64,000 nucleotides of DNA from Ophelia neglecta (GCA_965285935.1 OZ260663.1:70122001-70186000), one strand, 5' to 3'; shown: positions 30,774-50,520, counted from the stretch's first letter. Translations and numbers: made by a program. The notes: generated from the sequence alone by a model not told the origin.

Positions 30774-31862
30774 ATGATGGCATCGGCACCAAGACCAATT
30801 CTAAACAAATTACAGAGCAATCCGTCGCCGCCTCATCACGGGGGCGTGAGTCCGACCGGTAGCCCCAGACCATGGGGAGAGAGTTTTAATGAGCTATCTC
30901 GGAGTCTGCAGAAGATCTGCGGATCTCCTAGTCCTTATGGCTCCACCGAGCTGCTCCATTCGCCGCCGTCGCCTCGCACAAGTCCCATTCCAAGGCTTAT
31001 GGCATCTCCAGGAACCAAGGGCCCGTGCGGTAATGGCTTGGCCAATTCTTGCAGTGGAAAGATTGGGTCTTTCCAGAGAGCAATAAGCCATGAAACAAAC
31101 CTGCAACTGAGCCCAAACCACCGGCCAGTCATGGTCAGGCATGAGGAAACGGAGGCAAAACTAGAGGAAATGCTAACACTGATATGTACCACTCAAAAGG
31201 AGAACGAACGCAGCAGAAACTGCTCACAAGAAAGTGAACCGGTGACGACCAAACGCAGAGAAAGCATCAACACTGGCATTAAGCTGAATATACCTTTGGA
31301 GGAATCGGTGCGTGTGGACGACTTAATTGTGTCTGTGACTGAAGATCATGAGCTTGAGGTCAGTTTGCTGGAGAAAACGCGGACATCGTTTCGAGTAAAA
31401 GCTCTGCACAACACCAAAATACCTGAAACATCAGTGCTGGAAAATATTATCTGCAGCAAAACTAAAAGTACCTTGTACATAAGAGAATGCTCTACGCAGC
31501 ACCTATCTCTGTATTTTGGGGGACTCAAAACTAGATATTTACCTGTGCTACGTGAAGATGAAGAAAATTTGCATCTTAGAATCGTGTTTCATGTTCCCTT
31601 CGGCATCAACTTCGAGAATATCGCCGTGAAAACTGTGGACGACAATGTGGTGATACTGGGTCAGAAGGGGCGTTCTCCCACCCTCAGCGAAGGAGGGTCT
31701 CCCCCCACAAGACCGCGTGCACTATCCAAACAATGTTTCAGGGTAAGCATTTCTCTCCCCGACAATACAGAACCCCGGAGTATCACTGCTGCCCTCTCAA
31801 GAGGCAACCAACTGATCCTTTGTGGAAAAATGGAAAACTTATCCAGGCGGTACACATGTTAG
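30774..31862 (+). CDS. Small heat-shock-like protein with two tandem alpha-crystallin/HSP20-like domains (paralogue 1, 362 aa)
   Basis: Single coding exon after acceptor ttccAG (30746-30747). C-terminal LRIVFHVP..NIAVKTVDDNVVILG..CFRVSISLP..ITAALSRGNQLILCG fits ACD beta3-beta9; a weaker ACD-like repeat precedes it. AATAAA at 31871. ORF is conserved with the paralogue; domain call is by eye. Confidence 0.75.
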   Translation: MMASAPRPILNKLQSNPSPPHHGGVSPTGSPRPWGESFNELSRSLQKICGSPSPYGSTELLHSPPSPRTSPIPRLMASPGTKGPCGNGLANSCSGKIGSFQRAISHETNLQLSPNHRPVMVRHEETEAKLEEMLTLICTTQKENERSRNCSQESEPVTTKRRESINTGIKLNIPLEESVRVDDLIVSVTEDHELEVSLLEKTRTSFRVKALHNTKIPETSVLENIICSKTKSTLYIRECSTQHLSLYFGGLKTRYLPVLREDEENLHLRIVFHVPFGINFENIAVKTVDDNVVILGQKGRSPTLSEGGSPPTRPRALSKQCFRVSISLPDNTEPRSITAALSRGNQLILCGKMENLSRRYTC

Positions 31863-33549
31863 GCTCAATGAATAAAATGTGTACAGTTTCGTATATTTTG
31901 TCATTAAAAGTACCAGTTTTCTAGTTTTATGCGTTTATATGCTATATTTAATATCCACAGCTAGTATTTTGTTTGTTTAGATGTATTTTTTAACTGATAA
32001 AATAACTCAACACCAAACTCAAGGTACTTTAGCCTTTGTACTACTAACCATGACATGTTATACTTGGGAACCAAGTATTTGATCTCGTCAATATAGACTG
32101 AAGATCAAAAACATACTAGCTGCTGATGGAAAGAACAAAATGATGTAAAAGTTGGTTCTTACTGCTAGTATAATAGTTTGAAATATCTGTGTCTTTTTTA
32201 AGCACCAAATCTCAATTGTCAGTAAATGGTAAATAAACCTATACATATATAAGTATATTTTGAAAACCTAGTTGCCAATGTGAAAATATTTTGAAAGAGT
32301 TGTGTACAGTTGTCATATTTCACTATATTTAAAAAAAAAGTGACATCTAATGCCCAACGTTGACTTTTAAGGGTTAAGTTTATAAACCGTAGCTATTCTG
32401 ACGAATACATAAGCAAATTATTTCAAGAATATTTTATTCCTGTTTGTGGACTGAATGGTTCTTGCAAAGTTATCCCTGAATATACATCTACACAACGTTC
32501 ACTACTTTCTCGTTATGTCATATGCTTAGATCGGAGTAAGATCAAATTAAACCCAAGCAAACTGCTGGTAATAAATAATGCTGCAGGGATATGGGATTTA
32601 TTTTATTTGTGACTTACTAAAAACAGGTATAGGCCTATTTTATGGTAAGTTTTAGTTTTGTTTATGCTTATCACAATAGGTTGCCTTCTTTTGCCTTTTA
32701 AGTAATCTCTGATGAATTCCAAAGAGGAATTGACATCGTTTTGGTAAAAATAAGGACAAACAAAAGATACTTAAAATTGTTTTGTTAGACGTATCAATGT
32801 AAATTCGAAGTAAAGGGTTACTACACAAGAATACTACAATAACACTCGTCTGTAAGATTGGAAATTCAAATTGCAACGGAAAGCGATCTTTTGTGGGTAG
32901 TATTAGGCCTATATGACACTATAGTATTGTCTGAAACGCCTTTTTTGTAATTATTCTGGTGAGTCTATCTTCAGTCGTTTCAGCTATCAGACAGGGAGTT
33001 TGACACAGCTTATTTATTGTGAGTTATTGGATTTTTGCACCCTACCCAAGGTACAGTCCATTGTTGTGGTAAAAGAATATTTTTAAATGTCATATTGACC
33101 CAGGAATATATTAGATATGCACAACTTACGTAAAGTAACAAATGATTTAATGCGTTAAATCATTTCAGGTACAGTTGTTAATCAGGTTTATTAATAATTG
33201 AGTTTTAAATAGGTACAACTACATTTGAGTCAAGGATTGATTGATAATGACATAAATTTCATCTTGTAGAAGCGGTACAGAGCTCTGGTTTATATTGTGA
33301 TAATGTTAAAAGTATGTTTCTGCGTCCAATATATATATATATATAGTATATACAACTATGAATTAAGACTATACTGATTCAGTTTGTTATCGATTTACGT
33401 TAAAAAAATGACGTTGTCATTGAAAATTGAAATACCAGAAAATAAATACTTCTATCGTATTGGTTACACGAGCAAGGTTACTTTACATATCGTAATAATC
33501 AACACTACGTCAAGTCTCGTAGTCTACAATTGAAAACAATATCTGCAGC

Positions 33550-33740
33550 TATGCTTAAACAGCTGCAGTAAGTACTAAACTGCTGCTGGATTGATTCTCA
33601 TACCAAAATACGAAACACATTATACCGGTATTTCATGGCATGCACTTGGTTCCAGCTAAATAAGACATTATGTTTCCGTTGGCGAAAAACATGGCCCTTG
33701 ATTACGATGCTCCTGTGTACATCACGGACCTGCTGCTAAC
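33550..33740 (+). mobile_element. Old, degraded L2-type LINE ORF2 fragment
   Basis: Frameshifted translation LKQLQ*VLN/AAGLILIPKYE/HIIPVFHGMHLVPAK*DIMF..DAPVYITDLL tracks L2 LQ..QNAAARL..HITP.L..LHWLP..AP.Y..DLL. Confidence 0.6.
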
Positions 33741-48367: not shown

Positions 48368-48514
48368 NNNNNNNNNNNNNNNNNNNNNNNNNNNNNNNNN
48401 NNNNNNNNNNNNNNNNNNNNNNNNNNNNNNNNNNNNNNNNNNNNNNNNNNNNNNNNNNNNNNNNNNNNNNNNNNNNNNNNNNNNNNNNNNNNNNNNNNNN
48501 NNNNNNNNNNNNNN
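48368..48514. other. Assembly gap (147 N) next to a (TCTG/TC)n microsatellite
   Basis: run of n. Confidence 1.
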
Positions 48515-49440
48515 TCTGTCTTGTCTGTCTTGTCTCTGTCTCTGTCTCTCTCTTTCTCACTCGCAGTTTGAACATCCTATAATACATATCTGACACAAAA
48601 AGAAAATTACACATATCAGTAGGACGATCAGCCAAGGGTTAAGGCTGAGTGTGATATACCGCACTTAGCCCTATTGAGGGCAAATTGCGGGTCTGGCAAC
48701 AAGCCAAATTTATACGTTTACAGCGAGTGTTTTGCGCTCAGAATGTTTGGCTTACCTTTTCTTAGGTGACAGATGTCTACATGGCACTAGCCGATTAAAT
48801 AGAAGACGCTTGTAACAAAGAATCGTCACCGAAGTGTCAACCAGAACCCTATATATACCCTCCTGTATAGGAGCCTTTCAAAACAGAGGCGTTTTATATG
48901 ACCTGCATCTGTGGGCCCTTTTGCCTTTGGCTTTAGCTGGATAACTCCCAACATGGTGGCAAAAAAACTCATGATGACCGCTGCAATAGAGAACCTTTCT
49001 AAACTCGTCCATTTGATTTTTGAAATTCTTCTTATTCTGCGAGGGTTAACCAATTGACGTCATTTCTCATCTGAGTATATATATGGTTTAATCTTTTATT
49101 TTTATCTTTGTCAATGCCATCCGTCATATATTTACAGGTGTCGAACACATCTCCCATAATTCCACCTAGCTGTCATTGAAGACGTAAAAACGAAGCTTTT
49201 TTTTTTTATAACCAACTAACAATGCCGGTAATAAAATATAATGTACAGCCTCTTATACTTATAGAAAGACGACAAAATTAAAAAGAACAAGGTACCTGGC
49301 GACATTGAACCAGGTCACAGGTACATTGTAGGCCTAGAACCCTGGACGAGCGTATTGCATTCTGTAAGTTTCAAAAAATTTAATAATTACAGAAATTGTT
49401 TGAATTTCAGATGGCATTTTTAGAAGGATAAGTGACCATA

Positions 49441-50520
49441 ATGGCATCAGAACCGAGACCCATTCCCATGAAACTACGGGCAAAGTCATTGCCGGGATGC
49501 TATAGTCCGACTGGCAGCCCGCAATCGTGGAGACATAGCTTGAATGAGCTATCTCTGGGTCTGCAGAAGATATGTGGCTCTCCGTCAGAAGCTTGCCCCA
49601 CAGAGAGGCCAGATTCACCTAGCATCCATGGTATAAGTCCCATTCTAATGGTTACCCCAGAAACCAAGGGCCCTTGTCCAATGCCTTTAGCAGATTCCTG
49701 CTCTGGGAAGTTTGGACCTCTCCAGAGATCAATAAGCTTTAGTCCGAGCCGCCATCAGCTAATCTCCAACCACCGACCTATCGTGGTCAGGCACGAAGAA
49801 ACAGGGTCCAGACTGGGGGAAAGGCTTACATTGATATGTGCAAGCCCTAGGAAAAACGTGTTTACCAGACATAGCCCAACCGAGATGGAGTCATTGCGGA
49901 TAGGCCTACTGAGTAGAGTAAACCTCAAAGATGGAATCAACCTTAAGTTGCCGTTGGAGGAACCTGTGCATACAGATGATCTAATTTTGTCTATAGAAGA
50001 AAACAATGAGCTCAGGGTCAGTTTACAGGTTAAAACGCGGACAACGATTCAATTGAGAGTTCTGCACACTAGCAAAATACCTCAGACATCGGTATTAGAA
50101 AATATCATCTGCAACAAAATTAACAGTACCTTGTACATCAGGGAATGTTCTACCCAGCACCTATCGCTGTATTTTGGAGAACTGAAAACCAAATATGTAC
50201 CTGTTTTTCATGAAGATGAAGATACTTTACGTTTAAAGATTGTGTTTCACATTCCCTTCTGCTTCAACTTTGACAATATTGACGTGAAAACGGTGGACGA
50301 CAATGTAGTTATTATGGCTCAGCATTGCACTTCAACAGCACAGGCCAAGGGCGGGCAATCCACCACAAGGCCACAGGAACTATCCAAGCACTGCTTCAGG
50401 GTATGCATTGGGCTCCCCGACGGAACAGACTCCCGGAGTATTACTGCTGCCCTCTCCAGAGGAAACCAACTGATTATGTGTGGATCCATGGACAAATTGT
50501 CTAGGCCGTGCACGCGTTAA
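49441..50520 (+). CDS. Small heat-shock-like protein with two tandem alpha-crystallin/HSP20-like domains (paralogue 2, 359 aa from ATG)
   Basis: Collinear with 30774-31862 (identical blocks TSVLENIIC, STLYIRECSTQHLSLYFG, VKTVDDNVVI, RSITAALSRGNQLI); acceptor tttcAG 49409-49410; ATG 49441 (track uses GTG 49432); AATAAA overlaps the stop and recurs at 50529. Confidence 0.75.
   Translation: MASEPRPIPMKLRAKSLPGCYSPTGSPQSWRHSLNELSLGLQKICGSPSEACPTERPDSPSIHGISPILMVTPETKGPCPMPLADSCSGKFGPLQRSISFSPSRHQLISNHRPIVVRHEETGSRLGERLTLICASPRKNVFTRHSPTEMESLRIGLLSRVNLKDGINLKLPLEEPVHTDDLILSIEENNELRVSLQVKTRTTIQLRVLHTSKIPQTSVLENIICNKINSTLYIRECSTQHLSLYFGELKTKYVPVFHEDEDTLRLKIVFHIPFCFNFDNIDVKTVDDNVVIMAQHCTSTAQAKGGQSTTRPQELSKHCFRVCIGLPDGTDSRSITAALSRGNQLIMCGSMDKLSRPCTR

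Follow-up and report, generated by a model that had tools for sequence, protein, structure and literature searches.

Do two neighbouring genes for proteins with paired alpha-crystallin domains (ACDs) encode ordinary small heat shock proteins (sHSPs), or has the fold been put to another use? The question is raised by a 64,000-nucleotide (nt) stretch of Ophelia neglecta DNA (GCA_965285935.1 OZ260663.1:70122001-70186000; the window) from a 762-Mb assembly. In this window paralogue 1 (P0001, 30774..31862) and paralogue 2 (P0002, 49441..50520), both on the + strand with their starts 18,667 nt apart, each consist of a single coding exon with an intronless open reading frame (ORF), which encode proteins of 362 and 359 amino acids (aa) with the same architecture. 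The two products are identical at 209 of 360 positions (58%, BLASTP), and in a protein search of the same genome, in which seven candidates were scored, they were the only copies found. An earlier note on this DNA had proposed that they act as a non-oligomerising pseudo-dimer adaptor rather than as a classical holdase. The analysis described here adds a feature absent from that note, a conserved C-terminal R-x-x-T-x-COOH, and this tail, as read from its sequence, likely binds 14-3-3 signalling proteins.

Two diverged ACDs under purifying selection

A search of cluster representatives (50% clustering) returned 56 related proteins at E ≤ 0.001, the top match being about 35% identical. From a set of 59 proteins, 48 were aligned, 11 fragments or very long ones being excluded; counts out of 48 below refer to this alignment. 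In paralogue 1, ACD1 (31275..31487, + strand; residues about 168-238) is Pfam-negative, with six predicted strands and no beta2, and ACD2 (31563..31832, + strand; residues 264-353; PF00011 E 3.6e-5) carries a long variable beta5-beta7 loop, whose length ranges from 9 to 219 residues in the family. Pfam PF00011 detects ACD2 alone, above the cut-off in both paralogues (24 bits vs 20.8), in keeping with the previous description of a degenerate ACD1 and a clearer ACD2, and at E ≤ 0.1 it matches 35/48 members. A single paralogue sequence gave no match at E ≤ 10 among solved structures, sHSPs being reached by the profile only: the family profile matched the HSPB7 ACD with ACD1 (E 2.7e-8) and HSPB8 with ACD2 (E 3.8e-8). 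AlphaFold2 on the 48-member alignment yielded predicted local distance difference test (pLDDT) values of 93-98 over residues 171-300 and 321-350, with a predicted template modelling score (pTM) of 0.68. When ACD1 was modelled alone (residues 160-249; pLDDT 87), all the Foldseek matches shown were sHSPs and the best VIA match was the HSPB6 ACD (Z 9.1, root-mean-square deviation (rmsd) 3.2, 72 aligned). ESM Atlas matches were all below 0.9 and serve as leads only. Profile search, AlphaFold2 and fold searches agree on the two ACD folds claimed for residues ~165-362, and by these models both paralogues belong to the sHSP (HSP20) family, which is defined by at least one ACD. The fragments quoted earlier for ACD1, the segment CSTQHLSLYFG in both proteins and the beta7 stretches CFRVSISLP and CFRVCIGLP were all found in the sequences.

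We take the strand names beta2-beta9, and a place for R120 that precedes the beta7 proline by five residues, to carry over from alphaB-crystallin, an assumption that fits the invariant arginine of conventional paralogues: in six of these from the same genome, R occupies the place in ACD1 (6/6) and R or K in ACD2 (6/6). In paralogue 1 it is held by His212 (ACD1) and Val324 (ACD2). The ACD2 valine, already pointed out, is present in both paralogues and in 24/48 members; K or R is found in 6/48 (ACD1) and 8/48 (ACD2). The beta7 arginine is widely conserved and is not required for the sHSP family, as cluster A1 is also without it (PMC9075518). The idea of a pseudo-dimer finds no support in this comparison: pairing of the two beta6+7 strands was nowhere shown, the beta7 strand of ACD2 is predicted to be short (321-327) and the interface-stabilising arginine is lost in both domains.

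The two paralogues were compared by the Nei-Gojobori method over 356 codons, which gave a nonsynonymous rate (dN) of 0.286, a synonymous rate (dS) of 0.815 and a dN/dS of 0.35 (bootstrap 95% interval 0.26-0.47). For the N-terminal part taken by itself the ratio was 0.36 (0.23-0.56), and every segment was below 1. Both paralogues are under purifying selection. The earlier note had asked for this ratio, and its claim of two open paralogues, divergent yet selected, is borne out at both loci, the value being not about 1 and its interval lying well below it. Nucleotide likeness between the loci is limited to a candidate splice acceptor and the ORF, as expected of an old duplication, and a quick full-length tree places the two as a lineage-specific duplication (support 100), with branch lengths of 0.51 for paralogue 2 and 0.19 for paralogue 1. 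Could the pair instead be duplicates in decay, either relaxed or dead, with odd residues that result from it? In favour of this, the ratio is not especially low, both the longer branch and the poorer tail belong to paralogue 2, and a young retrotransposon lies between the genes. However, the interval excludes 1, both frames are open at a dS of 0.8, and the odd residues are common to relatives about 30% identical. In addition, contigs of runs X1-X3 (one other sample) cover paralogue 1 fully, with its frame free of gaps, and four of the five coding differences are synonymous. The same runs barely reach paralogue 2, a gap to which no meaning is attached. Decay is thus very improbable, being nearly excluded by these data.

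A conserved tail and the function of the subfamily

Paralogue 1 ends in R-R-Y-T-C-COOH (31845..31859, + strand), which reads as a mode III 14-3-3 and PKA-type consensus, and paralogue 2 in R-P-C-T-R-COOH (50503..50517, + strand), which keeps R-x-x-T-x-COOH in a poorer context. The form R-x-x-S/T-x-COOH ends both paralogues, 30/48 aligned members and 37/59 proteins overall, as well as all six further relatives from additional profile searches, and RR-x-T-C-x-F ends 10 further members of the 48. R358 is kept in 43/48 and T/S361 in 41/48, and the length of the tail is nearly fixed, with 14 residues from beta9 to the end in 37/48. When the last ten residues were shuffled, 2.6 members on average, and never more than 9, carried the motif, against the 30 observed. 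The carriers have a median identity of 26%, and none of the six conventional paralogues of the same genome bears the motif. Between ACD1 and the second of two N-terminal motifs described below, a basophilic site is found in 41/48 members (shuffle mean 27.7, maximum 36), a weaker signal than that of the tail. Readings of the tail as a class I PDZ ligand or a CaaX box were rejected by eye, since Thr and Cys are wrongly placed for them. R-x-x-S/T-x-COOH is the mode III 14-3-3 motif, for which PKA is the likely kinase in TASK channels (PMC4760375), and paired 14-3-3 sites frequently straddle a domain (PMC2860806). The genome itself encodes several 14-3-3 genes: there are 24 exon-level matches (L025-L030), and the separate 3' exons, spread over two contigs, number at least seven. 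As a separate observation, this 14-3-3 family is expanded and several of its exons are clustered.

The first 165 residues, described earlier as Ser/Pro-rich and disordered, are indeed 26.7% Ser and Pro in both paralogues; the disorder does not extend throughout, as two elements are predicted to be ordered. Motif 1 (30873..30929, + strand; residues 34-52), W-x6-L-x3-L-x2-I-C-x-S-P, contains a predicted helix at 34-49 (pLDDT about 82), and its pattern is matched by 35/48 members. Motif 2 (31122..31190, + strand; residues 117-139), hydrophobic-x-V-R-H-x-E-T..L...L..I-C, is modelled by AlphaFold2 as a strand (117-124) and a helix (127-139) with pLDDT 86-95, is matched in full by 44/48 and is a candidate IxI-like strand with a helix. 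L-x3-L-x2-I-C closes both motifs, and the Ser/Pro-rich region around them varies in length. Homology of motif 1 with the conventional W-helix was considered and set aside: the likeness is a pattern match only, and hhalign against six sequences left motif 1 unaligned. A candidate N-terminal IxI-type motif is present in 46/48 members by a loose and 25/48 by a strict definition, and I/V-x-I/V occurs in 1/48 family tails, which agrees with the reported absence of a C-terminal IxI. Because Tsp36 and HSPB6 assemble via N-terminal IxI-type motifs (PMC6119766), oligomers are compatible with the lack of a C-terminal IxI, and the term non-oligomerising does not follow from it.

The inter-domain segment (31488..31562, + strand; residues 239-263) is predicted to form strands at 244-249, 253-256 and 258-262, the last being beta2 of ACD2. 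CSTQHLSLYFG had been taken for an invariant linker; it is identical between the paralogues, but its sequence is variable among relatives, and beta strands are predicted rather than a flexible tether. The linker (238-257) measures 20 or 21 residues in 28/48 members, with a range of 18-70 in which the longer ones are a minority. One linker strand falls within the range aligned to the start of MjHsp16.5 (rmsd 5-6), a match of ranges only from which no packing claim is drawn. Four conserved residues, C49 (30918-30920; 41/48), H123 (31140-31142; 46/48), C138 (31185-31187; 38/48) and C227 (31452-31454; 42/48), all encoded on the + strand, are a possible redox or metal site.

How might such proteins work? 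The reading that we favour, although we put it at slightly below an even chance, is that the subfamily acts as a phosphorylation-gated ACD adaptor and not as a bulk holdase. Both ACDs would pack into a single compact unit together with the beta-stranded linker and the pair of N-terminal motifs, a beta4/beta8 groove would be filled by the N-terminal V-x-V strand, and the canonical beta6+7 dimer would, as in HSPB7, be weak if it forms at all. The penultimate Thr, and possibly also the RRES site that precedes ACD1, would be a substrate of a basophilic kinase, for instance PKA; binding of a 14-3-3 dimer would follow and would change where the protein is located or whether it can reach a specific client. 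The adaptor part of the earlier proposal is therefore plausible, being supported by the conserved 14-3-3-type tail, and is kept without the non-oligomerising and pseudo-dimer parts.

Several observations weigh against this reading. Any R-x-x-S/T within three residues of the C-terminus is lacking in 8/48 members, including the Paralvinella protein and one Helobdella protein, and the Thr lies outside the strict mode III position in 10/48. In paralogue 2 position -2 is Pro, and position +1, usually hydrophobic in the family, is Arg. Many tails also read hydrophobic-T-hydrophobic and could therefore be a groove-filling surrogate of the IxI. Because of the relatedness of the 48 sequences, the counts show conservation and not independent origins, and kinship is not corrected for in the shuffles. 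Moreover, the N-terminal IxI-like motif is kept across the family at the frequencies given above, Tsp36 dimerises via such a motif (PMC6119766, PMC11855743), and stress induces earthworm double-ACD sHSPs that belong to other groups (PMC13226371).

In the main alternative, which is rather unlikely, the proteins are divergent but ordinary holdases that assemble through the N-terminal IxI-like strand and helices like Tsp36 and bind unfolding proteins, the phospho-sites only tuning assembly. Besides the retention of the candidate N-terminal IxI, the hydrophobic spacing of motif 1 equals the W-helix spacing of 3/6 conventional paralogues (a pattern match), both ACDs are collinear with those of conventional double-ACD paralogues (hhalign probability 99.1%), Tsp36 is the top Foldseek match, and a response to heat and desiccation is known for other double-ACD sHSPs of annelids (PMC13226371). 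However, the beta7 arginine is lost in both domains, the match to Tsp36 comes with an rmsd of 22.7, a TM score of 0.18-0.22 and a different predicted domain arrangement, the hhalign match stops short of the N-terminal motifs, and the conventional paralogues have no tail motif. An alternative with a lower probability still is that of a regulatory subunit of mixed sHSP oligomers, whose grooves or IxI-like strand bind other sHSPs and cap or terminate assembly. There are at least 15 other HSP20 ORFs in the genome, and sHSPs hetero-assemble, HSPB3 by its N-terminal IxI (PMC6119766); by itself, however, this scheme leaves the basic Thr tail of fixed length unexplained. The adaptor reading can also be taken further, to an annelid-wide single-chain 'pseudo-sHSP' devoted to signalling: a monomer that caps itself, built from two ACDs, two N-terminal helices and an intercalated beta linker in an arrangement unlike Tsp36, whose two sites engage both grooves of the 14-3-3 dimer. 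The site before ACD1 and the mode III C-terminal site would flank the double domain, and a kinase would switch the sHSP fold on or off for one client. We regard this extended form as unlikely.

The subfamily, its range and its locus

We then asked how far the subfamily extends. Organism names were available for three of 30 clusters looked up and for one relative from a separate search, and all four are annelid (Paralvinella, Lamellibrachia and two from Helobdella); two further profile searches added no named non-annelid relative, and the subfamily is, judging from these matches, probably annelid in range. As the earlier note had foreseen for proteins likely to be annotated as uncharacterised, the database names of the relatives are 'hypothetical' or 'SHSP domain-containing'. 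In a quick domain tree of 59 ACDs over 82 columns, 18 family ACD1s and 18 family ACD2s are each monophyletic (SH-aLRT, an approximate likelihood ratio support, 99 and 96); family ACD2 groups with conventional downstream ACDs (83) and ACD1, weakly, with upstream ACDs (58). The collinearity found by hhalign covers both ACDs and leaves the N-terminal motifs outside the match. By these alignments the tandem ACDs are assigned to an ancient spiralian duplication, with a weak placement of ACD1.

The implied rarity of the layout itself is not borne out. PF00011 gives at least 22 matches in at least 17 ORFs of this genome, 11 of which have two ACDs, this pair counted, and in the published survey 272/393 ACDs come from two-ACD transcripts, the layout being called ubiquitous in annelids and its analysis deferred (PMC9075518). 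Nine double-ACD sHSPs with late stress induction are reported from Eisenia fetida (PMC13226371). Nine conventional double-ACD ORFs lie elsewhere in the O. neglecta genome (L003, L005, L006, L008, L011, L014, L019, L020 and L021); most have both ACDs in one open frame, and L019 and L021 form a second nearby pair, about 49 kb apart. Within the available parts of the supplements of PMC9075518 and PMC13226371 the family motifs gave no match, dimeric sequences being absent from the former, and the two Helobdella accessions gave none in the PMC9075518 supplement. A literature search by titles and openings of abstracts, in which subscription journals were mostly uncovered, did not find the subfamily described. 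The tandem-ACD layout is thus already known; what is new is a distinct conserved subfamily not found described.

At the locus, a candidate splice acceptor was read from the sequence 5' of paralogue 1 (30728..30747, + strand), and a near-identical stretch 5' of paralogue 2 (49391..49410, + strand). In both genes the main frame is closed between the candidate acceptor and the ATG, so that an upstream exon would be non-coding, and an intron in the 5' untranslated region (UTR) is probable in both. An ATG right after each candidate acceptor opens a short upstream frame, of 9 codons in paralogue 1 (30748-30777, + strand) and 6 in paralogue 2 (49411-49431, + strand), and both frames terminate at or ahead of the main start. 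Candidate polyadenylation signals AATAAA lie just 3' of the ORF in paralogue 1 (31871..31876, + strand) and at 50529..50534 (+ strand) in paralogue 2, where a second AATAAA overlaps the stop codon. No perfect three-unit heat-shock element was found in the 64-kb window; one-mismatch sites number 20, a count without a null, and the promoters were not located because of the probable 5' UTR intron.

Between the genes lies an intact non-LTR (long terminal repeat) retrotransposon of the LINE type (35595-40566, - strand), with an ORF1 of 505 aa and an ORF2 of 1157 aa that carries endonuclease and reverse transcriptase domains; it is young, as a 601-nt piece has six other full-length matches in the genome at 99-100%. 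Two inverted copies of another element (about 33880-34950 and 55520-56210), 21 kb apart, contain arrayed internal units of about 100 nt, 80-95% alike, and are probably a non-autonomous transposon. Sequence 3' of paralogue 2 (about 52500-54940) is duplicated in tandem, with a period of about 1.24 kb and an identity of 79-95%. Neighbouring genes gave no Pfam match in the 30 frames scanned of the 125 open frames of at least 70 aa in the window. One open frame (2550-3086, + strand), without a Pfam match, resembles an exon of a membrane protein, which we presume to be UNC-93-like.

Comparison with known systems

The annelid double-ACD sHSPs (PMC9075518; groups G1-G4 of PMC13226371) have in common with the pair tandem ACDs behind an N-terminal region with helices. 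They differ in that the first ACD of the present subfamily is invisible to Pfam and its beta7 arginine is mostly lost, beta strands are predicted for its linker, which is often short, and motifs 1 and 2 and the tail are specific to it. Six family motifs were not found in the E. fetida supplement sequences, of which nine were compared, four in part; by eye these sequences resemble other ORFs of the O. neglecta genome and not this pair, which on this comparison is outside groups G1-G4. Annelid cluster A2 is similar in size (359-381 aa) and in its basic pI (PMC9075518). Identity with A2 was rejected, as the A2 sequences compared carry one ACD and no family motifs, and matches to these motifs in the available part of the supplement were nil. 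Surveys treat annelid double-ACD sHSPs as stress chaperones or biomarkers, and their domain searches miss the first domain of the subfamily. If the adaptor reading is true, the tandem-ACD scaffold would have been recruited for signalling under kinase control as well; with a tail that is no 14-3-3 site, the subfamily would be a modest addition to a known family.

Taenia saginata Tsp36 (PDB 2BOL), a flatworm p40 protein, likewise combines tandem ACDs in one chain with an N-terminal groove-filling motif, and in HSPB6 and Tsp36 such motifs fill beta4/beta8 pockets (PMC6119766, PMC11855743). Its Foldseek match has an E of 6.5e-5 and its profile match an E of 1.7e-7; however, identity is 9%, and with the rmsd given above, taken over both domains, the predicted inter-domain arrangement differs. 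Human HSPB7, the best profile match for ACD1, has a weakened beta6+7 interface and is a precedent for an adaptor: it lacks the interface salt bridges, occurs as a monomer and has filamin C as its one client (PMC12046049). It has one ACD, and the resemblance is a functional analogy, not orthology; the subfamily itself would offer a natural case in which to study an ACD without the canonical dimer. Human HSPB6 (HSP20) is, similarly, an sHSP without a C-terminal IxI and with an N-terminal V-x-V, and when phosphorylated it binds 14-3-3, a complex solved as PDB 5LTW (PMC6119766). In HSPB6 the phosphorylated residue is the N-terminal Ser16 and the ACD forms a true dimer, whereas the candidate site of the subfamily is the penultimate residue of a two-ACD chain. 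Should the 'pseudo-sHSP' form of the adaptor reading be true, these proteins would combine, by an independent invertebrate route, 14-3-3 binding and monomeric client binding, which vertebrates divide between HSPB6 and HSPB7, respectively.

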